The notes under the pieces were generated by a model. That model was not told the DNA's origin and ran no database searches. It saw nothing but the letters and a program-made list of their open reading frames with translations. This document shows positions 2,445-59,849 of a DNA stretch of 64,000 bases, piece after piece (the first letter of the stretch is position 1; every line of letters begins with the position of its first letter). A program made the translations under genes and the position numbers. The DNA comes from an uncultured Candidatus Saccharibacteria bacterium (GTDB lineage Bacteria; Patescibacteriota; Minisyncoccia; Phycocordibacterales; UBA918). The DNA lies in NCBI GenBank assembly GCA_964350985.1, contig CAYGLK010000001.1, positions 391,698 to 455,697 of the forward strand, given 5' to 3'.

Positions 2445-4130
2445 TTAAAGATCAGGAGTCAAATCAGGGTAAGTCTCACTTCCTGGACAAACAATGTTGT
2501 TTATTTTCCATCTTGTAGTTTTGTAGACGTAACCAGTTGGTTCTTCTAAGTCCCAAGGTTCAAGCACATCTAAGGCATGCTCTGCTTGAAACAATCGCAC
2601 ATTAGCCTCTGTTGCATCATCGAAGATTCCAGTTACTGGAGTAAAGAAACCTTGTCCAGCAAGGAAATATTGGAGCTTCATTACTTCCCTGGCGTAAGTC
2701 ACCATATCAGCCCGCATATAGTCATACAAATATGGTTCACAAACAGGCGTTCCTGATACACTTCCGTTACTAGTACTAGCGCCTAATACTTGCCCAGATG
2801 GAGCATTGCGGAAACCAACCTTTGTTCCAGTCGACCTACTACTAGATTGTTCTTCTTCCGGCTCTGGTTCTGGTTCAGTATCATCATTTCGCTGATTACC
2901 AAAATCACAAGAGTAATTACCAAAAGGCTCAGCCGTAGCAAAAGTTACAAAATCTCCTCCTACTGCAGGAAAATCTAGAGAATTAACTTGAAGTAGATTT
3001 TGATTGAAAATAGGTTCTTCTATCACAAAGGCACACTCAGGTGTCTGCTGATCTACAGTTACAGATTCTCCATTTTCCCTTAATCCAGTTGGTGTCCAGC
3101 CTTCTTGATTTATTTCAGTAACTGTCCAATTACCTGGACCTACATTGAACGAATAATAACCGAACTCATCTGTAGTTACACGATCTACTTCTCCATCGCT
3201 ATTGCTTAAAACAATCTCCCAATCAGCTAGCCGTGCTTCGTCTTCATCAAAAAATCCGTCGCCATCAACATCTTCCCACTTAGTACCGTAGATTTGATCA
3301 AGATATGGTGTACTAGAGCTTTCAATCACAAATGTACGCCCGCTCTCTATACTGCTCTCTTCTGCATTATCAAATACCCGGAGAGAGAAACAGTAGTTTC
3401 CAGACGTAAACTGAGTTGTATCCACAAATGCACTGAAGCTTCCTTCAGTGAAATCGAAAGGGTCTGTTAAATCATCAACATTTCCAACAAGTGCTCCAGT
3501 ACTTGAGTCACAGGTGCCTTCATAGATTTCCCACGCAGCATTATCTTCATTATCATCGTTATCTATGTATTCTGCTGTAAATTCATACTGTCCATAAACT
3601 GTATCGTAATTATTTTCTGGTTCGATAATTTTAAGCGTAGCTTCTCTAAGATCTCCGGTGACAGACAGATTACTGAGGTAAACAGAATCTGAAGCTGGAT
3701 TGTCATTATCTGTGACTTTTATATATATCATCAAGTCTGCCACTTGAGCATTTTCCGGTAAGGATGTTAAGACGGAGTCAATTTCATCCTCATTCGTAGG
3801 GGGTGCATTAGGGTCAGTAGACTCATCTGTGCCCGGGATAGTATTAATATCATTATCTCCGCTAATAGTTCGCCAACCATAAGTAAAGCTATCGGTATCA
3901 TCCAACTCTTCAGCATCGTAATCAAAAATTAGAAGTAGATTTTCGTAATATAGAGCGTTGATGCTTGTTGAAACAAATTCATTATTTTGATCAGCAGAAG
4001 CTGAAGACTGACTATAGATAGTATCTGCCGCAGCCAAACTTACTCCTGTAAGTAAAAATACGAAGAAAACTCCAGAGATCAGAGCAATGAACTCTTTCTG
4101 CTTAAAACTTAAAATAAAATCCATAAACAA
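2445..4130 (-). CDS. Secreted cell-surface protein with SdrD-B/Cna-B-like fold segment and C-terminal peptidoglycan-binding-like domain
   Basis: Signal peptide; WEDVDGDGFFDEDE...GYYSF motif typical of SdrD B-like repeats; C-terminal LQYFLAGQGFF..G.FDDAT..AV..FQ resembles PG_binding_1. Confidence 0.5.
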   Translation of the reverse strand: MFMDFILSFKQKEFIALISGVFFVFLLTGVSLAAADTIYSQSSASADQNNEFVSTSINALYYENLLLIFDYDAEELDDTDSFTYGWRTISGDNDINTIPGTDESTDPNAPPTNEDEIDSVLTSLPENAQVADLMIYIKVTDNDNPASDSVYLSNLSVTGDLREATLKIIEPENNYDTVYGQYEFTAEYIDNDDNEDNAAWEIYEGTCDSSTGALVGNVDDLTDPFDFTEGSFSAFVDTTQFTSGNYCFSLRVFDNAEESSIESGRTFVIESSSTPYLDQIYGTKWEDVDGDGFFDEDEARLADWEIVLSNSDGEVDRVTTDEFGYYSFNVGPGNWTVTEINQEGWTPTGLRENGESVTVDQQTPECAFVIEEPIFNQNLLQVNSLDFPAVGGDFVTFATAEPFGNYSCDFGNQRNDDTEPEPEPEEEQSSSRSTGTKVGFRNAPSGQVLGASTSNGSVSGTPVCEPYLYDYMRADMVTYAREVMKLQYFLAGQGFFTPVTGIFDDATEANVRLFQAEHALDVLEPWDLEEPTGYVYKTTRWKINNIVCPGSETYPDLTPDL

Positions 4131-5122: not shown

Positions 5123-5704
5123 TTATATACGCAAATTTGTGGAATTTAGGACATTGTATAACTGTTTTTTACCTCTGGAAACCAAAGTTCCAACTGAACC
5201 GGTTGGTATTTTCAAAATATCAGAGATTTCTTGATAATCTTTCTCTTCAAAATAACGCAAAATAATCACTTCGCGATATTTCTTATCAATTTTTTCCAGA
5301 GCTTGTGCTAGCTCATCAGCGTTTATTTGTCTGTCAAAAAGTACTTCTGCATCGTCTTCTTTGGCTGACATTAACTTTAGCGCTTCGTCACTATCTAAAA
5401 GCAAATGACCTTCCGGTCTGACTTTTTGCTTCCGATACCAGCTAATCGTCTCATTGTGAGCAATACGATAGATCCAAGAAGAAAATGATAAGGAGGTATC
5501 AAAGCTATTGAGATTTTTGTATGCTTTGATAAAGATCTCCTGCATCACGTCTTGCTGATCCTCTGCGTTACTTAGCCCTAACCTAAATATATAGCGTTTT
5601 AGCTTCGCTTCATAACGTTCAATTAAAAACCCAAAAGCACTGTGGTCCTTGAGGGTTAAGCTGACAATCTCAGAATCAGATAATTTATTGATTTCAGGAT
5701 CCAT
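5123..5704 (-). CDS. ECF-type RNA polymerase sigma-70 family factor
   Basis: Sigma70 region 2 (DVMQEIFIKAYKNL..F..W) and region 4 (YREVIILRYFEEKDYQEISDILKIPTGSVGTLVSRGKKQL) motifs. Confidence 0.75.
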   Translation of the reverse strand: MDPEINKLSDSEIVSLTLKDHSAFGFLIERYEAKLKRYIFRLGLSNAEDQQDVMQEIFIKAYKNLNSFDTSLSFSSWIYRIAHNETISWYRKQKVRPEGHLLLDSDEALKLMSAKEDDAEVLFDRQINADELAQALEKIDKKYREVIILRYFEEKDYQEISDILKIPTGSVGTLVSRGKKQLYNVLNSTNLRI

Positions 5705-5766
5705 ACTGCTTTTTATATTCTACCAGCAACTTGAGCAAGCTCATACATTCGTAGTACAATCTGCAT

Positions 5767-6267
5767 ATGAAAAAAATATTATTTTTGAGCCTATTGTCAC
5801 TTTGTATTCTAGTTTCTAGTAACAGCGCCGAAGCCTATAGTGCCAGCAACCAAAAAGCCGTTCGTTTAAGCCCAGAATTCAGTTTATTTACAATTACTTA
5901 TACGTCTAAATTTCTAAATCGTGACGCCTACCTGCCAGTAGCGGCAGAACGTGGCTTAGACAATGAAAACCGAAAGCCAATTGTTGGTTTCGAACTTATC
6001 ACTGATGGTGGTCTACGAATTAAAGACGGAACAGCTTACGCTATTGTTTTAAGTTCTGCTTCTGTTAAAGAAAAAATGTATTTTACTGAAGAGAACGAAG
6101 CTGGTTCTTATACATTAGTTGTTTTATATAAGCATGCTGCTGACCGTAATGACACAGCCCTACAAATCACTTCCCTACCTTTTATCTTTGAAAAAGACGA
6201 TAAAAGAACAAGCACTAAACTCAACGAACACGAACTTGTTGATTACCGTACTGAGGCGTTAAACTAA
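5767..6267 (+). CDS. Secreted hypothetical protein
   Basis: Signal peptide MKKILFLSLLSLCILVSSNSAEA; no recognisable domain. Confidence 0.4.
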   Translation: MKKILFLSLLSLCILVSSNSAEAYSASNQKAVRLSPEFSLFTITYTSKFLNRDAYLPVAAERGLDNENRKPIVGFELITDGGLRIKDGTAYAIVLSSASVKEKMYFTEENEAGSYTLVVLYKHAADRNDTALQITSLPFIFEKDDKRTSTKLNEHELVDYRTEALN

Positions 6268-7331: not shown

Positions 7332-9113
7332 TTACTTCTTTCTTTCACTTTCCTTCAGCTTTGATTTTCGGAGACGAACGTTATGTGGCGTCACTTCTAG
7401 ATATTCGTCACCTGAAATGATTTCTAGACCAACTTCGATTGAAATAATTCGAGGATTGATTAGATTGATCGCTTCATCTGTTCCAGCAGAACGCATGTTT
7501 GTCAGCTGCTTTCCTTTAGTTGGATTTACAGTCATTTCTTCACCCTTACTAGTGTTTCCGATAACCATACCCTCGTAAACTTCTGTTCCAGCTGAGATAT
7601 ATAGCTGTCCACGGTCTTGGAGGCCATAAAGGGCAAAGCCAAGCGCTTTTCCTTGAACCATTGAAATCATAGATCCTACTTGTCGTTTCTTGATTTCTCC
7701 AGCATATGGTTGGAATCCTAATACTCGTGAAGCTAAGATACCTTCTCCCTTTGTATCAACGATAAATTGGTTCTTGTAGCCAAGCAGACCTCGTGTCGGT
7801 CCTTCGAAAAGAAGTCGAACCTGGTTTTCATGCATAATCATATTAGACATTATGAAGGCTCGGTTACCAAGACGTTCAATTACTGCTCCTTGGAATTCAG
7901 ATGGAATATCAATAGTCACTTCTTCAAACGGTTCCATTTTCTGTCCGTTTTCTTCTTTGATAATTACTTGTGGTTGAGATACAGAAAGCTCGTAACCTTC
8001 TCGACGCATGTTTTCAAGCAAGATAGCGATGTGCATTTCTCCACGACCTCGTACTTCATAAGAATCACCTTGTGAGAAGTCTACTTGCAAACCAACGTTG
8101 ATTTCAAGTTCTTTTTCAAGTCTTTCACGGATTTGACGTGAAGTAACATACTTTCCTTCTCGTCCAGCAAACGGTGAGGAGTTAGGCATGAACTGAAGTG
8201 CGATTGTTGGCTCATCTACAGCAATAGTTGGCAACGGCTCTGCAGTTTCGTCATCAGTTAGGGTATCTCCAATATTGATCTCTGAAAATCCAGCAATCAT
8301 CACAATATCTCCAGCAAAAGCTTCTGGTGTCTCTTGTTTCTGGATACCTTTGAAAGTAGACAGCTTTACAATTTTTCCTTTATTTATATTTGTCACTCCT
8401 TCGTGCTTAACAAACAGAGATTGATTAGCCTTCATCGAACCTTCATAGATTCGAGCTACAGCTAAACGACCAAGGAAGTTGTCGTACCCAAGGTTAAATA
8501 CTTGAGCTCGTAGTTTTTCTCCAGGAACATATTCACGGGCTGCTGGTACTTTTTCTAAAATAACATCAAGTAGTGGCGACAGGTCTTTTAGTTCATCATC
8601 CATCTTTCGTTTTGCTACACCATTTCTACCGATAGCATATACCACTGTGAAGTCTGATTGTTCATCGTTTGCCCCAAGTTCTAGGAAGAGTTCTAGTACT
8701 TGTTCTTCAGTTCGAGCTGGATCAGCTGCTGGCTTATCGATCTTGTTGATCACTACAATTGGCTTTAAACCGAGTTCTAGTGACTTTTTTAGTACAAACC
8801 GTGTCTGAGGCATTGGACCTTCTTGAGCGTCCACCACCAAGAGTACAGAGTCAATAGAACGTAGTACACGTTCTACTTCAGAACCGAAGTCGGCGTGACC
8901 AGGAGTATCAACAATGTTGATCTTTGTACCTTTGTATTCAACTGAGGTATTTTTGGCATAAATCGTAATACCACGCTCTTGTTCTAGAGCGTTACTATCC
9001 ATTGAAGTTGAACCATCACGAGCGCCAGTTTGCTCCATCAGAGCATCAGTAAGAGTGGTCTTACCATGGTCCACGTGAGCAATAATAGCGATATTACGAA
9101 TTTCCTTTGACAT
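7332..9113 (-). CDS. typA: GTP-binding protein TypA/BipA
   Basis: AIIAHVDHGKTTL G1 motif, DTPGHADF, NKIDK; 593 aa full length translational GTPase with BipA-type C-terminus. Confidence 0.9.
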   Translation of the reverse strand: MSKEIRNIAIIAHVDHGKTTLTDALMEQTGARDGSTSMDSNALEQERGITIYAKNTSVEYKGTKINIVDTPGHADFGSEVERVLRSIDSVLLVVDAQEGPMPQTRFVLKKSLELGLKPIVVINKIDKPAADPARTEEQVLELFLELGANDEQSDFTVVYAIGRNGVAKRKMDDELKDLSPLLDVILEKVPAAREYVPGEKLRAQVFNLGYDNFLGRLAVARIYEGSMKANQSLFVKHEGVTNINKGKIVKLSTFKGIQKQETPEAFAGDIVMIAGFSEINIGDTLTDDETAEPLPTIAVDEPTIALQFMPNSSPFAGREGKYVTSRQIRERLEKELEINVGLQVDFSQGDSYEVRGRGEMHIAILLENMRREGYELSVSQPQVIIKEENGQKMEPFEEVTIDIPSEFQGAVIERLGNRAFIMSNMIMHENQVRLLFEGPTRGLLGYKNQFIVDTKGEGILASRVLGFQPYAGEIKKRQVGSMISMVQGKALGFALYGLQDRGQLYISAGTEVYEGMVIGNTSKGEEMTVNPTKGKQLTNMRSAGTDEAINLINPRIISIEVGLEIISGDEYLEVTPHNVRLRKSKLKESERKK

Positions 9114-15201: not shown

Positions 15202-15810
15202 TTAACTTCTCCTCCATCTTTCGACGTAGGACTCGAGTTCTTCCCACGAATCAACCACTGTTCGAACTGGAGATGTCAGCAATAATTCACGAGAGTGGTA
15301 ACCAAAGCTGACTGCAACTACCGGCAAGCCAACTTTCTCCGCTTCATAAACATCACCAGTCGTATCAGTGATGAACAAAGCATTGCTAAGATCAATATCT
15401 TCCACTCTTTCAAGATGGAGGAACTTCTGAACTTTCGACAGTCCTGCCTCCATACCCAGAATAGATTGGAACAAATGATCCATTCTCGCATCCCGAAGCA
15501 CTCGCGCTATTGCGGCCCCGCAATTGCTTGAGACTACATGAAGCACTAATGATTCGGCTAAGCGCTTGATGTAGGGGGTCGAGGACTCAACGTGTTCCAG
15601 CGACAGATGCTGGTTGTAAAATGCCGCGTACGCCGCTGATGTTTCCGGCGTAAAACCGACCACGTTGCGCTCATAAACATTCCCCAAATGATGGTCGACC
15701 CGATAACTGTCTTCAAGCACCTCAGGATGAAGTTGCTTTACCAGCGACCAATTCAAAGCAAGTGTGTCGCCGACAACACCGTCGAAGTCAAGAAGAAGAT
15801 GCCTTTTCAT
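15202..15810 (-). CDS. HAD superfamily hydrolase (phosphoglycolate-phosphatase-like)
   Basis: LLLDFDGVV motif I; C-terminal FITDTTGDVYEAEKVGLPVV motif III/IV. Confidence 0.7.
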   Translation of the reverse strand: MKRHLLLDFDGVVGDTLALNWSLVKQLHPEVLEDSYRVDHHLGNVYERNVVGFTPETSAAYAAFYNQHLSLEHVESSTPYIKRLAESLVLHVVSSNCGAAIARVLRDARMDHLFQSILGMEAGLSKVQKFLHLERVEDIDLSNALFITDTTGDVYEAEKVGLPVVAVSFGYHSRELLLTSPVRTVVDSWEELESYVERWRRS

Positions 15811-16546: not shown

Positions 16547-16633
16547 GGAGAGATGGCAGAGTGGTTGAACGCGCATCCTTGGAAAGGATGTATGGGGGCA
16601 ACCCCATCGGGGGTTCGAATCCCCCTCTCTCCG
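16547..16633 (+). tRNA. tRNA-Ser (anticodon GGA)
   Basis: Cloverleaf read by hand: acceptor GGAGAGA/TCTCTCC, anticodon stem CATCC/GGATG with loop TTGGAAA, long variable arm (TATGGGGGCAACCCCATC), T-arm GGGGGTTCGAATCCCCC, discriminator G; no encoded CCA. Confidence 0.8.
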
Positions 16634-16760
16634 CAAAATTGATAAACTCATACTTTTGTATGGGTTTATTAATTTCTGCGCTGGTGGATTCGAAGCCCGA
16701 TTGAGCTGGATTATGAGTCTACGAAATAATCTAGCCAATCGGGGTACTGAAACTGTAAGT

Positions 16761-16776
16761 TTCGAATCCCCCTCTC
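16761..16776 (+). repeat. 16-nt direct repeat of tRNA-Ser T-loop/3' end (TTCGAATCCCCCTCTC), att-like scar
   Basis: Exact match to 16614-16629 inside the tRNA; the surrounding gtaag..cat does not fold as a T-stem, so it is a fragment rather than a second tRNA. Confidence 0.6.
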
Positions 16777-16852
16777 ATAAAATCCATGAGAGTGACCGAA
16801 TCCCAGTATCTACGCACTTTGCGTGAAGCTTTTAGTAGTTACCAGAACAAAC

Positions 16853-16881: not shown

Positions 16882-16933
16882 TTTCAACTAGCCATTTCTG
16901 GCTTATTCATATATCCACAACAAGGAGGGTTCC

Positions 16934-17455
16934 ATGTACATTGACCACTTACCAATGCCGAACTGCCCCGCAAGGAAGGTGGTTGTCATCGAAGATTGCG
17001 ACAAGCCCTACACTGTGCTCTTCGTCGATCAGGTGATCGAGAAAGCTCGCATCCACGATGCTACCTCGCGGGACAGCGATAGCGACGAGATCTTCTGGAT
17101 CGTCTTTGCCAACGAACCGCGACGTGCTTGGGACATGACCGAGTCGGCGCTGCGCAGCTCGCTGCGCCGCCCGAAGTCGGAGCGTCTGCCCAAGGAGCAG
17201 CTTATCGCCATGGGCGATGATGCTCCGATCGGCGAGATCCTCGAGACCTTCGACTACGGCGGCCTCATCTCGTTCGCTCAGCGCGACATGCCGATGGTGT
17301 GCCGGGAACTCGAAATGTCCACGCTCGGCGATATTGCCAAGCTGAAGCGTTCTGAGATCACTGGTCCGCAGTACCGCTACGCCGGTAACAAGACGCTGTC
17401 GTACCTTGACTCCGTCCTGAACGAGTTTGGCAAGCCGCCGCTCCAGGCCCTCTAG
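16934..17455 (+). CDS. Hypothetical protein with C-terminal RNA-polymerase-alpha-CTD-like helix-hairpin-helix segment; GC-rich foreign gene
   Basis: Local GC ~60% vs ~38% flanks; AAGGAGG 8 nt upstream of ATG; C-terminal LGDIAKLKRSEITGPQYRYAGNKTLSYLDSVLNEFG resembles alphaCTD HhH; the antisense ORF 16949-17497 is the usual high-GC artefact. Confidence 0.55.
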   Translation: MYIDHLPMPNCPARKVVVIEDCDKPYTVLFVDQVIEKARIHDATSRDSDSDEIFWIVFANEPRRAWDMTESALRSSLRRPKSERLPKEQLIAMGDDAPIGEILETFDYGGLISFAQRDMPMVCRELEMSTLGDIAKLKRSEITGPQYRYAGNKTLSYLDSVLNEFGKPPLQAL

Positions 17456-17514
17456 AACGCCGGACGACCAATCCGAGGAGATGAAGATACTGCTCATTCG
17501 TGCTCCACCTCACC

Positions 17515-17545
17515 ATGATCCGCCCTTCCAGGCGGATCATTTTTC
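17515..17545 (+). terminator. Rho-independent terminator of GC-rich insert gene
   Basis: gatccgcccttccaggcggatc hairpin followed by ATTTTTC. Confidence 0.55.
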
Positions 17546-21487: not shown

Positions 21488-23143
21488 TTAGTACATTCCT
21501 CCACCCATACCTCCCATTCCTCCCATATCTGGCATAGATGGCTTATCTTTCTCTGGCTCGTCAGCAATAGCTGCTTCGGTTGTGAGTAAGATTCCTGCAG
21601 CTGAAACAGCGTGTTGTACACAAGCTCGCTCTACTTTTACTGGGTCAATAATTCCAGCTTTAATCATATCATCGACCATCTCTCCTTTTGCAGCGTCAAA
21701 GCCTGCATTTCCTCCAGCAGTTTTTACTTTCTCTACAATCACCGCCCCGTCTACCTTTCCAGTATTATCAGCAATCTGCTTTAACGGCATCTCAAGGGCC
21801 TTAAGTACAATACTGTACCCAACCAACTCTTCTTTACTTAGTTGTTTTTTAGACAAGATTTCTTTCTCAACAATAGCTGCCGCTCGAGCTAGCGAAGTAC
21901 CACCTCCAGGAACAATTCCTTCTTCAATCGCCGCTTTAGTGGCATTGACAGCATCTTCAATCTTCAACTTTAGATACTTCATTTCAGTTTCTGTTGCAGC
22001 TCCTACCCGAATTACTGCTACTCCTCCAGAAAGTTTAGCAATTCTTTCTTCTAGTTTTTCTTTATCAAACTTAGAAGAAACGGAGTCTACTTGAGCTTTC
22101 AGAGCTTTTACTCGATCAGTAATTGCACTCTTTTCTCCAGCACCACCAACAATCACAGTACTGTCTTTAGTAGACACTACTCGATCCGCCTTACCTAGTT
22201 GAGCTATTTCAGTATTTTCAAGCTTTAGTCCAACTTCTTCAGAGATAACTTCAGCCCCAAGAGTGATCGCCAAATCTGCCAGTAATTCTTTCTTTCGATC
22301 ACCGTAGCCTGGCGCTTTGATAGCCAAGACTGAAAATCCTCCCTTTAGTTTGTTAACCACAAAAGTAGCTAGGGCTTCACCTTCGACATCGTCAGCAATG
22401 ATCACCAGTTCTTTCTTCCCTGTTTGGGCAATTTTTTCAAGTAGTGGCAAGATATCTTGCACTGAAACAATCTTCTTGTCTGTAATAAGGACGTGAGCAT
22501 TCTTATATTCAGCTTCCATTCGTTCTGGGTTAGTCACCATATAAGGAGAAACATATCCCCGATCGAATTCCATTCCTTCAGTAAATTCTGTTTCAATTCC
22601 AAAAGATTGTGACTCTTCTACGGTAACTACTCCGTCTTTCCCAACTTTATCAATAGTTTCGGCAATTTTTTCTCCTAGCTCAGCACTCTCAGCTGAAATA
22701 GTCGCTACTTGTTTGATCTCATCAATTGAACTGATCTTAGTCGCCATCTTATGAAGTGTTTCAACTACATCCTTAGCAGCATGCTCCATACCAGTTCGAA
22801 CTGCCATTGAGTTTAGACCCATAGTAGTCTGCTTCAGACCTTCATTTACCAAAGCTTGAGTCAAAACTGTAGCTGTAGTAGTACCGTCTCCGGCTAGCTC
22901 GTTAGTTTTATTGGCTACCTCTTTAATGATCTCAGCTCCCATATTCTCGAACTTGTCAGACAGGGTAATATCTCTGGCAATTGAAACGCCGTCGTTGGTG
23001 ATAGTTGGACCACCAAAACCCTTATCTAAAATCACATTTCGCCCTCGTGGACCTAGAGTTACTTTTACAGCATTAGCAACCGTATCAACGCCTTTTTGCA
23101 ATTTCTTTTTTACCTCCTCACCAAAAATAACTTGTTTAGCCAT
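21488..23143 (-). CDS. groEL: Chaperonin GroEL (60 kDa)
   Basis: 551 aa; AKQVIFGEE...VTLGPRGRNVIL...GDGTTTATVL and C-terminal GGM repeats. Confidence 0.95.
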   Translation of the reverse strand: MAKQVIFGEEVKKKLQKGVDTVANAVKVTLGPRGRNVILDKGFGGPTITNDGVSIARDITLSDKFENMGAEIIKEVANKTNELAGDGTTTATVLTQALVNEGLKQTTMGLNSMAVRTGMEHAAKDVVETLHKMATKISSIDEIKQVATISAESAELGEKIAETIDKVGKDGVVTVEESQSFGIETEFTEGMEFDRGYVSPYMVTNPERMEAEYKNAHVLITDKKIVSVQDILPLLEKIAQTGKKELVIIADDVEGEALATFVVNKLKGGFSVLAIKAPGYGDRKKELLADLAITLGAEVISEEVGLKLENTEIAQLGKADRVVSTKDSTVIVGGAGEKSAITDRVKALKAQVDSVSSKFDKEKLEERIAKLSGGVAVIRVGAATETEMKYLKLKIEDAVNATKAAIEEGIVPGGGTSLARAAAIVEKEILSKKQLSKEELVGYSIVLKALEMPLKQIADNTGKVDGAVIVEKVKTAGGNAGFDAAKGEMVDDMIKAGIIDPVKVERACVQHAVSAAGILLTTEAAIADEPEKDKPSMPDMGGMGGMGGGMY

Positions 23144-53022: not shown

Positions 53023-53191
53023 AAATAATATTTGAAGAATGTTAAAAATTATACGATTTATTTTAGATTTGTTTATTCAAGAGCATCTTAACACAATCAG
53101 CTTGTTAGTGAAAAAGTAAATATTAAAATACAAAAACAGCCCGCGAAACGAGTCCGTAGACTGTTCCTGCGAGCTATTGCTCAAATCCATC

Positions 53192-53884
53192 TCACCAACT
53201 CTTCGAGATTCGCATCCCGAATGTTGCATGTTGCCCAGTTTCGCCGGCATACCAGTCGACCAACGAGCCAACCGACACACGGTTGGGTAACTGATAGTCG
53301 ACAGCAACCCTGCCCCAAGCGCCGGTGTACCCATCATGAGTTTGATGACTGACGCCGATGCCAACGGTCGAAGACCAAGGGCTATCGAAATCACGTATCC
53401 AATCCGCACCCGTCCGGATTGACCAGGTCTCGATAAGACCTGTTATGCGGCCACCACCAGCCCAGATCCTGAGTGAATCATTCTCGCTCAGAGTGATAGT
53501 CCTTCCGATTTCGGCCTGTAGCCGAATGATGTCGGAATCGAGGTCAAAATCAGTCGCTGACGGAGTCGGCAGGTCGAAGTAGGCGAAGGAGATCTTCAGA
53601 TCGACTTCTCCGACCTTGGTTCCACAGCCGAGGGAGTAGTCGATTTCATTCCCTTCGTTGCCGAAGTCGATTGCCGACGATGCCCAGAAGTCTGCGAAAC
53701 AGTCTTCTCCGCTGAAAGTTATTCCACTTTGCACGACTGGGTTCTGATCTTGTACAAACCCAAACTCAACGAAAGAATAGTCCGACTTGATGGCGCTGTA
53801 AGCCGTCACTGTCTGACTCTGAGCCTTACCAGCCAAAAAAGAGGCGGTAAGGATGAAAATTACGAAGAACGAGAATCTGTTCAC
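53192..53884 (-). CDS. Outer-membrane beta-barrel-like secreted protein (GC-rich, GTG start)
   Basis: Signal peptide; alternating amphipathic beta-strand pattern; C-terminal aromatic (..SKSW); local GC ~55%; GCAGGAG RBS before GTG. Confidence 0.5.
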   Translation of the reverse strand: MNRFSFFVIFILTASFLAGKAQSQTVTAYSAIKSDYSFVEFGFVQDQNPVVQSGITFSGEDCFADFWASSAIDFGNEGNEIDYSLGCGTKVGEVDLKISFAYFDLPTPSATDFDLDSDIIRLQAEIGRTITLSENDSLRIWAGGGRITGLIETWSIRTGADWIRDFDSPWSSTVGIGVSHQTHDGYTGAWGRVAVDYQLPNRVSVGSLVDWYAGETGQHATFGMRISKSW

Positions 53885-54166
53885 GGTCTACTCCTGCGAT
53901 TAAGGTAAGAACTACTGATCAAACAACGTTTACTATAGAATAATAACCCGTTTTATTCAAATGTCAAGCTTCACTTTCATCTCTTACTGCAGCCTACAAA
54001 AAAACATGCTACATTAGCAATGCTGTGCTGAGGTATGTGTAGCATAGGTGGGAGGCTTTGAAGCAGTTTCGCCAGATTCTGTGGAGCCGACAGTGAAATA
54101 CCAGCCCGCCCTGGACAGCCGGAGCGTCTCTCGAGACGCTCCGTTTTATATTATAAATTGAACTTT

Positions 54167-54194
54167 CTGCATGGGACGATGTTAGAACTTTTTT
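54167..54194 (-). repeat. Cassette-boundary element copy 2 (ctgcatgggacgatgttagaactttttt)
   Basis: Same family as other copies. Confidence 0.6.
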
Positions 54195-54252
54195 ATAAAT
54201 AAAAAGGCTCCCGATCGCTCGGGAACCTCTTGGCACTCCACAGTGCCTGCTA

Positions 54253-54414
54253 TCCTTCGGACTCGTCCTCAACGAGCAAACCAGTTTCCTTATCCACGGA
54301 AAGGATTCTGCCTTCGTCATCAAGGACTGAGTGTGCACGGACACCGAGGCCGGTTTCGAAGGATCCGTCTTCAGCAAGCCCTGGAGGCTTTTGACCAATG
54401 GCATATTCGCTCAT
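54253..54414 (-). CDS. Small GC-rich hypothetical ORF (53 aa) followed by hairpin
   Basis: MSEYAIGQKPPGLAEDGSFETGLGVRAHSVLDDEGRILSVDKETGLLVEDESEG; the overlapping listed ORF 54009-54404 runs through the boundary repeat and is rejected. Confidence 0.3.
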
Positions 54415-54505
54415 TTGAGTTCTTCTTCAGTTTGCGGACGGGATTCATCCAAAAGTATTTTAACACACCTTTACAAAACCGAAAATATCAGTGCTGTAAC
54501 AGATT

Positions 54506-59276: not shown

Positions 59277-59849
59277 TTAGGGCGTGGTCTCGATGAGACG
59301 AACTACATTGTTGAAGACTTCTTTTTTTGAACCGGCTGGCACTAGATTCAACTGTGGAATCTGCCCAGCAACCTGATCGAACACCATAGAGTCGGCCAAG
59401 CGCCTGACGATAGTTTCGTCTGTCTCTCCCCGGCTCCTGAGACGACGTGTCAGCTCATCAACTCCTGGAGCAACCAGATGAACTGGAATACATCTAACGC
59501 CCCTACCTTGGAACCAATCTGACACCAGCTGGTGGCACTCAGGAATAATGCAAACGAATGCCAGGCCACCTGTCTCAGCTGCCGCCTCAGCAAACTGTGA
59601 CTCAGTGCAACAGTATTGGTGGCCGTGATTAAGGACTTTCCAAATAAATTCCGTGATATCTCTCAGACCTTCCAATGTCTGAAAGTCATAATCGACGTCA
59701 GTTTCATAAGGACGGCGAGGACGAGTGGTAATGCTGCGCACCCTGCCGCCACCGTAGTGAGTCTCCAGAGCTCGTTCCAGGGTTGTTTTACCAACTCCTG
59801 AGGCCCCAGTGATTGTCACAACCTTCTTGATCATTGTCCAGAACTCCAA
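59277..59849 (-). CDS. Guanylate-kinase-like P-loop protein (GC-rich; probable start 59831)
   Basis: ITGASGVGKTTL Walker A then SITTRPRRPYETDVDYDF (GMP-binding TTRxxRxxE..G.DY.F); ~52% GC; GGAG RBS instead of leaderless -10; terminator hairpin cgccctaacc...ggttagggcg after stop. Confidence 0.65.
   Translation of the reverse strand: MEFWTMIKKVVTITGASGVGKTTLERALETHYGGGRVRSITTRPRRPYETDVDYDFQTLEGLRDITEFIWKVLNHGHQYCCTESQFAEAAAETGGLAFVCIIPECHQLVSDWFQGRGVRCIPVHLVAPGVDELTRRLRSRGETDETIVRRLADSMVFDQVAGQIPQLNLVPAGSKKEVFNNVVRLIETTP

Follow-up and report, generated by a model that had tools for sequence, protein, structure and literature searches.

A predicted outer-membrane-type β-barrel gene in a GC-rich, probably acquired block of a Paceibacteria chromosome

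The DNA at ~53096-54443 of the window (the whole 64-kb stretch that was analysed) is probably a horizontally acquired block, in which a self-contained unit encoding a predicted outer-membrane (OM)-type β-barrel is accompanied by baggage; the barrel family is likely either circulating among compact genomes or repeatedly entering them. CPR/Patescibacteria are treated as monoderm, and β-barrels in the OM, where BAM assembles them, are regarded as a hallmark of diderms. To find an intact OM-type barrel gene and a complete set of expression signals in the chromosome of a Paceibacteria member, i.e. of a cell presumed to lack an OM, is odd. The elements listed in an initial annotation of this DNA are all present at or near the positions it gave, whereas its proposals as to their origin fared less uniformly.

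Host, barrel gene and composition

The host BipA is 84-90% identical to BipA of Paceibacteria, Parcubacteria and Kaiserbacteria MAGs, an identity which places the host in the CPR, as initially supposed. The block lies in the interior of a 528-kb contig, in an intergenic gap flanked on either side by host genes; the neighbouring genes, which encode cellular enzymes, have the same orientation as the block.

The barrel ORF (53192..53884, minus strand) starts with GTG and encodes a protein of 230 residues ending in ...ISKSW. A Shine-Dalgarno (SD) site, GCAGGAG (53890..53896, minus strand), as read from the sequence, lies 6 nt 5' of the GTG. The coordinates, start codon and SD site are as given in the initial annotation, but the GC content is 0.522 rather than ~55%. 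A promoter scan identified a near-consensus sigma-70 promoter, TTGACA-16-TATTAT (53940..53967, minus strand; 11/12 matches), the spacer of which contains a motif, AAAACGGGTTA, that is common, by alignment, to the homolog at locus L001. An intrinsic terminator of the barrel gene (53131..53180, minus strand) comprises a long GC-rich hairpin followed by UUUUUG; its folding energy is -26 kcal/mol (z=-3.6; equally stable shuffles, 0/200), and a terminator scan was also positive. The near-consensus promoter and the terminator make the barrel gene a self-contained unit. Its ORF is intact, including the signal peptide and the C-terminal aromatic motif, as are the SD site, promoter and terminator.

The product is predicted to consist of a Sec-type signal peptide and a 12-stranded OM-type β-barrel with the KdgM/NanC/Tsx/autotransporter-barrel fold. 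The AF2 model, which was made from a 42-sequence alignment and supersedes a two-sequence run (pLDDT 36), is a closed antiparallel barrel with an even number of strands that matches solved OM barrels. In the predicted signal peptide, residues 3-18 are helical and AGKAQSQ comes next, and a terminal W or F is kept in all close barrel relatives (ISKSW, VSKTW, ISRVF, IVKTF and VSKTF). The solved 12-stranded barrels that were compared, i.e. KdgM/NanC, Tsx, COG4313, the EstA/NalP/Hbp autotransporter β-domains and FapF, have only 6-12% sequence identity with the window barrel, and no relative in the PDB was found at the sequence level (best E=0.018). An autotransporter was ruled out, since the 230-residue protein has no passenger domain, its barrel beginning at ~residue 25 after the signal peptide; the likeness to autotransporters is limited to their β-domain barrel.

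GC in 150-nt windows is 0.26-0.36 up to ~53125, where it climbs to 0.51-0.56, and it is back to 0.36 at ~54425, with the block (53125-54420) having 49.7% GC compared with 38.3% for the window. The tetranucleotide distance of the block from the rest is 0.486, a value topped among sliding windows only by an island at 16.9-18.2 kb. The GC3 of the barrel ORF is 0.589, versus a host mean of 0.32 (host GC 0.38); its third positions have C/(C+T) of 0.58 and G/(G+A) of 0.56, against 0.26 and 0.28 for the host, with both third-position G and third-position C being above the maximum of the 35 host genes tested. Codons that are rare in the host (TCG, CCG, CTG, AGG and CGG) are enriched in the barrel gene. 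SD sites of at least 5 nt precede 2/61 ORFs in the window, both being GC-rich islets (p=0.0055) and one being the barrel, and 0/29 in confirmed Paceibacteria loci. The GroEL control has a host-like composition and no SD, which argues that high expression is not the explanation of the barrel anomaly. The composition, codon usage and translation signal of the barrel gene are clearly unlike those of the host; the initial annotation had proposed a non-host composition, and the codon usage and tetranucleotide comparisons are indeed deviant, with the use of an SD in an SD-less host as a second, independent foreign signature in agreement. The 'high-GC donor' that it also proposed is not borne out, the block being only ~50-55% GC.

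A second GC-rich islet in the window adjoins a tRNA-Ser that has a duplicated 3' end and att-like repeats, and unrelated orphan ORFs, both in the window and at L088, show the same combination of raised GC and an SD. The non-coding neighbours of the barrel gene in the window are likewise GC-rich.

Relatives of the barrel

The only close homolog of the barrel is P0002 (locus L001), which is 59% identical. The pN/pS of 0.31 and dN/dS of ~0.12 between the two sequences indicate purifying selection between barrel copies; this dN/dS value is an average over the whole divergence and tells little about selection in the present host. A profile of the window protein plus P0002 matched 95 proteins at E<1e-3 and, at E=1.1e-8, the TorF member P0012 (47.5 bits on TIGR02001, barely over the cutoff of 47.15), giving the window barrel, via P0012, significant homology to bona fide TorF/Gcw_chp members. 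Gcw_chp/TorF is matched by 12-13 of the 42 best barrel relatives (E<=0.01), and one of ten distant relatives tested singly passes the TIGR02001 cutoff. The window barrel itself aligns to TIGR02001 model positions 26-110 with 19.2 bits (E=7e-4), i.e. under the curated threshold of 47.15, and matches neither PF09694 nor any other Pfam family at E<=0.01. On these profile comparisons, the window barrel is a distant, sub-threshold relative of the TorF/Gcw_chp putative porins, such that the HMM search suggested initially for an OMP family yields a remote link but no above-cutoff family match. A Pfam cadherin match (E=0.095) was judged spurious.

At least four further contigs, all of them compact and SD-poor, carry distant barrel relatives as GC-rich, SD-led single-gene islets at different loci, and barrel islets are seen in independent assemblies of at least four other samples (Logan, JGI). 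The relatives on L086/L088, L087, L089 and L090/L091 have GC3 values of 0.61-0.71, versus 0.31-0.45 for their neighbours; each lies among housekeeping genes and is equipped with a TTGAC-N17-TAnnnT promoter, an SD and a terminator of its own. As read from these contigs, the barrel recurs across compact genomes. In L089 it separates Fmt from HPF, but these two are direct neighbours in L088, where the barrel is elsewhere; the two contigs are very diverged, with neighbouring genes ~44% identical, and ordinary rearrangement, as opposed to mobility, could account for the difference in position. When L086-L091 were compared with known Patescibacteria loci, only Def and YceG matched, weakly (33-39%), and the other barrel-bearing contigs could derive from diderms, for which an OM barrel would be nothing unusual. 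The context-readable relatives are 27-35% identical to each other, yet all are GC3-shifted, and a GC3 excess across copies at this identity is hard to reconcile with a simple un-ameliorated transfer.

Searches for a source were negative. A pattern scan of 185,579 GTDB species representatives revealed no donor of the barrel, no close relative was found in JGI metagenomes, IMG/VR, PLSDB plasmids or INPHARED phages, and ~300 kb of other Patescibacteria loci contained no relative; the search for a donor lineage that had been suggested initially thus returned none from GTDB, JGI, IMG/VR, PLSDB or INPHARED. The 'diderm donor' of the initial annotation was argued solely from the fold, and the nearest context-readable relatives likewise form GC-rich islets, within compact genomes of low GC. 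No empty site was found in a search via the flanking 170-aa gene; the closest relatives of this gene (78-81% identical) have unrelated neighbourhoods, and the host relatives are not syntenic at the locus. At L085, a DUF1653 gene a few genes downstream is the only echo of the window.

The remainder of the block

A repeat search identified a 24-nt direct repeat bracketing the block. The left copy, TTTATTCAAGAGCATCTTAACACA (53072..53095), is in AT-rich host DNA shortly 5' of a methyltransferase promoter, and GC-rich DNA starts, on the minus strand, directly after the right copy, TTCATCCAAAAGTATTTTAACACA (54444..54467). The copies match at 19/24 positions and have no further match in the window or any compared locus; a 19/24 match was attained in 2/500 flank shuffles, for which the flank windows were picked after the repeat was seen. 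Boundary elements on either side of the block had been claimed without being specified, and this imperfect repeat is the only candidate that we found.

An isolated 70-nt fragment of 23S rRNA (54037..54106, plus strand; cmscan 41.6 bits, E=9e-12) corresponds to positions 2136-2205 of the Rfam LSU model (E. coli ~2098-2172), which we take to be the region of the L1-stalk helices H76-78. The initial annotation had overlooked this fragment. Its identity to annotated 23S genes of many Proteobacteria is 81-88%, in a region too conserved for lineage assignment. With only positions 2136-2205 of 2925 present and a score below the gathering score of 50, it is not a full-length functional 23S gene, and no further rRNA or LSU match was found in the 64-kb window. 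Folded alone, the fragment is no stabler than its shuffles (z=-0.6), and the promoter scan revealed no plus-strand promoter for it. It is most likely an inert relic; that it is transcribed as a uL1 decoy is a speculative proposal, for which neither a promoter nor excess stability was found. An apparent leftward extension of the 23S homology to ~53925 ('tttactatag') was rejected, the alignment being weak and the stretch being the -10 region of the barrel promoter on the other strand. A 22-mer spanning the junction of the pseudo-23S with the adjacent terminator had no match in JGI metagenomes or IMG/VR. Rfam matches to c-di-GMP-II, BjrC68, ctRNA_p42d, the S4-Fusobacteriales leader and miRNAs were far under their gathering scores and are attributable to the rRNA fragment or the terminator hairpins.

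Directly 3' of the 23S fragment is an intrinsic-terminator-like hairpin (54120..54147, plus strand) with a 10-11 bp stem, a loop and UUUU; its 11-nt arms (hairpin 54120..54143) are perfectly complementary (-18.3 kcal/mol, z=-3.8). Convergent with it, and 3' of a micro-ORF, is a strong intrinsic terminator (54202..54231, minus strand) with a 13-bp stem and U-run (-21.8 kcal/mol, z=-5.0; 0/200 shuffles). The 'GC hairpins' that had been singled out are thus present (54120-54143 and 54202-54231), but as ordinary convergent intrinsic terminators.

The micro-ORF (54250..54414, minus strand), taken from the ORF list, encodes an acidic orphan of 54 residues, not 53 as initially counted, and has 52.7% GC. 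It has no SD and no Pfam or PHROG match, and tblastn against plasmids and the compared loci gave no match. Its exact sequence is missing from a collection of 15 billion proteins in which the neighbouring host proteins are present, implying that it is not called in public annotation. As an ORF it exists, but as a gene it has no support from these comparisons. A truncated 3' gene end was rejected, as the frame closes 4 codons 5' of the ATG. Overall, GC-rich pieces and the AT-rich spacers between them make the block a mosaic, and only the promoter-gene unit is common to L001, the sole close homolog, so that the acquisition of 'one cassette', as first proposed, is not supported.

Origin of the block and comparison with known systems

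We propose that a Paceibacteria (CPR) chromosome received the block, between the repeats, by insertion into a stretch of accessory genes. The part that functions would be a 'moron-like' transcription unit, comprising promoter, SD, GTG, 230-aa ORF and terminator, with a product combining a Sec signal peptide and a 12-stranded barrel of the small-channel class (KdgM/NanC/Tsx-like), kin to TorF/Gcw_chp. The 70-nt 23S relic with the terminator hairpin on the opposite strand would be baggage, as would the short orphan ORF with another terminator. The barrel gene may move horizontally among compact, SD-poor genomes, or it may enter them repeatedly from an unsampled reservoir of ~55% GC. We infer that the barrel gene is expressed and its product exported in the host, and our best guess is that the barrel, in any hydrophobic outer layer to which it is delivered, acts as a channel through which small solutes pass passively. 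We know of no route for assembling such a barrel in a BAM-less monoderm.

It is possible, although we consider it somewhat unlikely, that the barrel gene is a dead-on-arrival passenger, i.e. a recent arrival that merely happens to be intact so far, has a product with no means of assembly in a cell lacking an OM and BAM, and is bound to decay. The un-ameliorated composition and the junk around the gene (an rRNA relic and an unsupported micro-ORF) are consistent with this, as are the description of CPR as monoderm (PMC8871954; PMC12102498) and the presence among Paceibacteria partners of archaea, which have no OM (PMC9763046); the ORF and all of its signals are, however, intact, and intact copies recur in several compact genomes. 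Less probably, the barrel may be a native, lineage-endemic surface protein family of the compact, SD-less genomes, in which selection, such as that for very high expression or mRNA stability, maintains the GC3, SD, promoter and terminator. The genes with the highest expression generally include those for major envelope proteins, and the near-consensus promoters would fit such a role, as would the finding that 5/5 context-readable relatives are in lower-GC, SD-poor compact genomes and have the same anomaly at 27-35% identity, with no GC-matched 'donor' copies among the top matches. By contrast, the shift in G/(G+A) and the host-rare codons are unlike translational selection in an AT-rich genome, and it is these purine-ending rare codons, together with a GroEL control having neither the shift nor an SD, that make a native highly expressed gene less likely. 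The sharing of the GC and SD syndrome by unrelated orphan ORFs in the window and L088 (one by the tRNA-Ser with att-like repeats), the GC-rich non-coding neighbours, and the lack of a relative in ~300 kb of other Patescibacteria loci or in the scan of GTDB representatives also argue against it.

The sharp jump in composition at both ends of the block, the highly conserved rRNA fragment within it and the source, a metagenome-assembled genome, are what would be expected of an assembly or binning artefact, in which DNA of another organism was joined, perhaps via conserved 23S k-mers. We regard this as very improbable, because the block is internal to the 528-kb contig with host genes on both sides and a neighbour-like orientation, is bracketed by a unique direct repeat, and has counterparts in the similar barrel islets of independent assemblies of at least four other samples; moreover, the 23S piece has non-rRNA on both flanks and so is no bridge between two rRNA genes. 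A more far-reaching proposal, which we consider improbable, is that monoderm CPR episymbionts (Paceibacteria and comparable SD-less compact genomes) keep and exchange, as self-expressing single-gene units, a dedicated Sec-exported family of 12-stranded OM-type barrels that assembles without BAM, either into the OM of a diderm partner (solute siphoning) or into an unrecognised outer layer of their own.

Either compact genomes of this kind repeatedly sample genes from a diderm or mobile reservoir, in which case the genes are useful tracers of physical associates, or barrels are used in an undescribed way, such as pores in partner membranes or in an unrecognised outer layer. The combination of a GC3 shift and an SD in an SD-less host provides a practical and very clean marker of foreign genes in CPR genomes.

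As in att-scarred genomic islets, a unique direct repeat of 24 nt flanks the block on both sides; unlike in integrated islets, its two copies match imperfectly (19/24), and neither an integrase nor another recombinase was found in or next to the block, with no integrase-like Pfam match among the neighbours scanned. In comparison with integron cassettes, the hairpins after the ORFs of the block carry terminator-typical U-runs. Phage morons are self-contained promoter-gene-terminator units of deviant GC (Hendrix/Juhala), and lambda lom, which encodes an OM barrel, is a classic moron; Lom is an 8-stranded Ail/Lom barrel and belongs to a different family from the window barrel. The barrel unit differs from morons in lacking prophage context: the block lies in neither a prophage nor a phage genome, its neighbours are housekeeping or accessory genes, and it has no PHROG, INPHARED or IMG/VR relatives. 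It resembles them in consisting of one inserted gene, complete with promoter and terminator, in its deviant composition and in carrying an OM barrel as cargo. With respect to TorF/Gcw_chp (TIGR02001; PF09694), the function of which is uncharacterised, as 'putative' in the family name conveys, the context of the window barrel is an SD-less CPR genome rather than a proteobacterium, whereas the proteins are alike in their size of ~220-250 residues, their N-terminal signal peptide, their predicted all-β OM barrel and their C-terminal ...S-x-x-F/W.

The barrel protein and its relatives

The minus-strand ORF at 53192-53884 encodes 230 aa; the GTG start and the GCAGGAG that the initial annotation described are both present, the latter six bases upstream. 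Its only close homolog among 5.8 billion proteins, P0002, is encoded on a 1.1-kb Logan contig (L001) and is 59% identical. The two genes differ mainly at synonymous positions (pS 0.71, pN 0.22, dN/dS ~0.12), which marks the ORF as truly coding and subject to purifying selection. A single-sequence Pfam scan of the protein found nothing; an exhaustive HMMER search with a two-sequence profile retrieved 95 proteins at E<1e-3, mostly of 220-260 aa. Among the best 42 of these 95, 12-13 match Gcw_chp (PF09694) or TIGR02001 ('TorF family putative porin'), four an autotransporter beta-domain, and one each a MetA-pathway family and OMP_b-brl. The window profile recovers a bona fide TIGR02001 member, P0012 (47.5 bits), with E=1.1e-8. 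The barrel protein itself scores 19.2 bits against TIGR02001, below the curated cutoff of 47.15; it is a distant relative of TorF/Gcw_chp, not a member.

An AlphaFold2 model from a 42-sequence alignment (pLDDT 93.7, pTM 0.85) opens with a signal helix and continues in long antiparallel strands, and all of the top 50 Foldseek matches of this predicted model in the PDB are Gram-negative outer-membrane barrels, which bears out the initial assignment to the outer-membrane (OM) beta-barrel class. The fold and superfamily are known ones. An autotransporter identity was rejected, since the protein lacks the passenger domain that autotransporters carry.

Composition and content of the GC-rich block

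In 150-nt windows GC rises from 0.26-0.36 to 0.51-0.56 at ~53125 and returns to 0.36 at ~54425 (window as a whole, 38%), in agreement with the GC-rich block claimed for ~53100-54420. The tetranucleotide distance of the block to the remaining window, 0.486, is surpassed only by that of an island at 16.9-18.2 kb. The barrel gene has a GC of 0.522 (host mean 0.40) and a third-position GC (GC3) of 0.589 (host mean 0.32); its third-position C/(C+T) of 0.58 and G/(G+A) of 0.56 (host means 0.26 and 0.28) lie above the maxima among 35 host genes (0.46 and 0.44), and the host-rare codons TCG, CTG, CTC, CCG, AGG and CGG are enriched. The proposed codon-usage and tetranucleotide comparisons thus both returned a non-host signal, and the codon shift is one of general G+C, beyond the C-ending bias of translational selection.

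A Shine-Dalgarno (SD) match of at least 5 nt occurs in two of the 61 window ORFs (p=0.0055), the barrel gene and a strongly GC-rich ORF at 16934; it occurs in 0 of 56 once five GC-rich ORFs are set aside, and in 0 of 29 genes of three confirmed Paceibacteria loci (L083-L085). With a host that is all but devoid of SDs, the presence of one sharply marks a gene as foreign in this lineage. The GroEL gene (21488-23143), as a control, has a host-like GC3 of 0.295 and no SD, so high expression is not the cause of the barrel anomaly. Two independent lines, codon composition and translation signal, identify the barrel gene as foreign. The gene is served by a near-consensus promoter of its own (TTGACA-16-TATTAT, 53967-53940), with a spacer motif, AAAACGGGTTA, common to L001, and by its own terminator (z=-3.6).

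The remainder of the block includes a 70-nt 23S rRNA fragment at 54037-54106(+) (Rfam LSU_rRNA_bacteria 2136-2205, 41.6 bits, E=9e-12), in which helix pairing is mostly retained. Its identity to annotated 23S genes, those of E. coli and of numerous other Proteobacteria, is 81-88%. It is equivalent to E. coli ~2098-2172, the region of the L1-stalk helices. The 64-kb window holds no further rRNA, no plus-strand promoter was detected for the fragment, and its folding stability does not exceed that of shuffled sequence (z=-0.6); it lies between two protein-coding units and is followed by a terminator hairpin. We interpret the fragment as an inert relic. In the predicted fold of 54005-54152 (z=-2.6) its 5' end pairs with upstream non-rRNA sequence through a perfect inverted repeat of 8 bp, AUGCUACA / UGUAGCAU, at 54006-54013 / 54038-54045. 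The GC hairpin noted earlier at ~54115-54142 is present directly after the fragment as a perfect 11-bp stem (54120-54143), resembling a plus-strand intrinsic terminator; a second, stronger terminator, 54231-54202(-), lies downstream of a 54-aa ORF. This ORF (54250-54414) exists much as the proposed micro-ORF at 54253-54414, but its status as a gene is unsupported: it has no family match, no SD and no homolog in any collection searched, and is uncalled in the public annotation.

Just beyond the GC-rich DNA lies a unique imperfect 24-nt direct repeat (53072-53095 and 54444-54467), whose 19/24 match was attained in 2 of 500 shuffles; it fits, inconclusively, an insertion-site duplication. Acquisition as one cassette is unsupported, because AT-rich spacers divide the GC-rich pieces and L001 shares the promoter-gene unit alone.

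The strongest compositional island of the window is 16900-17520 (57-67% GC, tetranucleotide z=5.1). Its ORF 16934-17455(+), called in the public annotation, is preceded by AAGGAGG, the best SD of the whole window, and matches nothing in Pfam or PHROG; an antisense ORF, 16949-17497(-), overlaps it. Nearby, the tRNA-Ser(GGA) 3' end TTCGAATCCCCCTCTC (region 16547-16816) has an exact copy at 16761-16776 and a partial one at 16797-16816, which look like att-type scars of integration at the tRNA gene. The GC-rich ORFs 59277-59849(-) and 15202-15810(-), both lacking an SD, may be older acquisitions. One of these two is guanylate-kinase-like (AAA_18; phrog_1815, E=4e-17), with 51% GC and a TTG start; the other, a HAD_2 hydrolase, has 48% GC.

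Host and recurrence of barrel islets

The host, whose window lies on a 528-kb contig, belongs to the CPR class Paceibacteria: the window BipA/TypA (7332-9113) shares 84-90% identity with its counterparts in MAGs that carry the labels Candidatus Paceibacteria, Parcubacteria, Kaiserbacteria and Patescibacteria, and relatives of a flanking 170-aa gene are labelled Nomurabacteria, Paceibacterota and Yonathbacteria. Characterised CPR bacteria are described in the literature as monoderm, with a type IV secretion system of monoderm type (PMC8871954; PMC12102498). At 51-60 kb, small genes for accessory enzymes follow one another on the same strand (IMPase, DUF1653, methyltransferase, the 170-aa conserved Paceibacteria protein, HAD phosphatase, several AAA_18 kinases and a 307-aa ORF with an HGDxxxxN kinase-like motif, read by eye); the stretch looks like an insertion-prone variable region, because synteny with close relatives is poor.

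On the contigs of the next-closest relatives the barrel gene is in each case a compositional outlier. Its GC3 is 0.65-0.69 for P0004/P0229 (L086/L088; neighbours ~0.33-0.42, encoding RseP, RRF, a short DNA pol III delta-prime, MreB, MurA, Def, Fmt and HPF), 0.66 for P0003 (L089; 0.33-0.45; Fmt, HPF, PF1765, glutaredoxin), 0.61 for P0005 (L087; 0.35-0.42) and 0.71 for P0230 (L090/L091; 0.32-0.48; GyrB, RpoD, DnaG, MnmA, YceG, ATP synthase). Every copy has its own TTGAC-N17-TAnnnT promoter, strong SD and GC-rich terminator, and the hosts, like that of the window, are SD-poor. P0005 (182 aa; L087 ~2280-2958) seems to have lost its 5' end in annotation: a start at an in-frame GTG further upstream adds a signal-peptide-like N-terminal stretch, VKKLFTAVLLLMPLASHS..., ahead of which lie AAGGAGAA and a TTGACA-N17-TAGTTT promoter.

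L089 has the barrel gene between Fmt and HPF, two genes that abut in L088, where delta-prime and MreB flank the barrel gene instead. Each contig thus acts as an 'empty site' for the other, although the organisms are distant (neighbouring genes ~44% identical), so the differing positions alone are no proof of mobility. The recurrence suggests that the gene is passed among such SD-poor genomes, which may or may not be CPR, or that they acquire it repeatedly. L088 also carries two GC-rich orphan ORFs that mirror those of the window, 3307-3924(+) (205 aa, GC3 0.72) and 5643-5987(-) (114 aa, GC3 0.64, GGAGG SD), against ~0.33-0.48 for its other genes; neither has a Pfam or PHROG match.

Origin of the block and comparison with known systems

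The block probably reached an accessory region by horizontal transfer and consists of a moron-like expression unit (a self-contained promoter-gene-terminator unit) and junk DNA; the product of the unit would be a Sec-exported 12-stranded channel-type barrel. It is possible, though rather unlikely, that the gene is a recent passenger whose barrel cannot be assembled in the host. A native family with its composition maintained by selection would account for an anomaly that persists across very diverged copies, and for the failure to find a GC-matched donor; it is nevertheless improbable given the purine-ending rare codons, a GroEL control with neither composition shift nor SD, and unrelated orphans with the same GC and SD syndrome. 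The recurrence of barrel islets in independent assemblies argues against artefact; an assembly chimera is very unlikely.

For the moron-like unit, a use of such barrels by CPR cells, in a partner's outer membrane or an unrecognised outer layer, is a slim prospect. No account of OM-type barrels in Patescibacteria turned up in the literature; what is new here is a subfamily of such barrels whose genes occur in CPR-type genomes as foreign, self-expressing islets. In anatomy the barrel unit is similar to phage morons such as lambda lom, but it stands outside a phage context.
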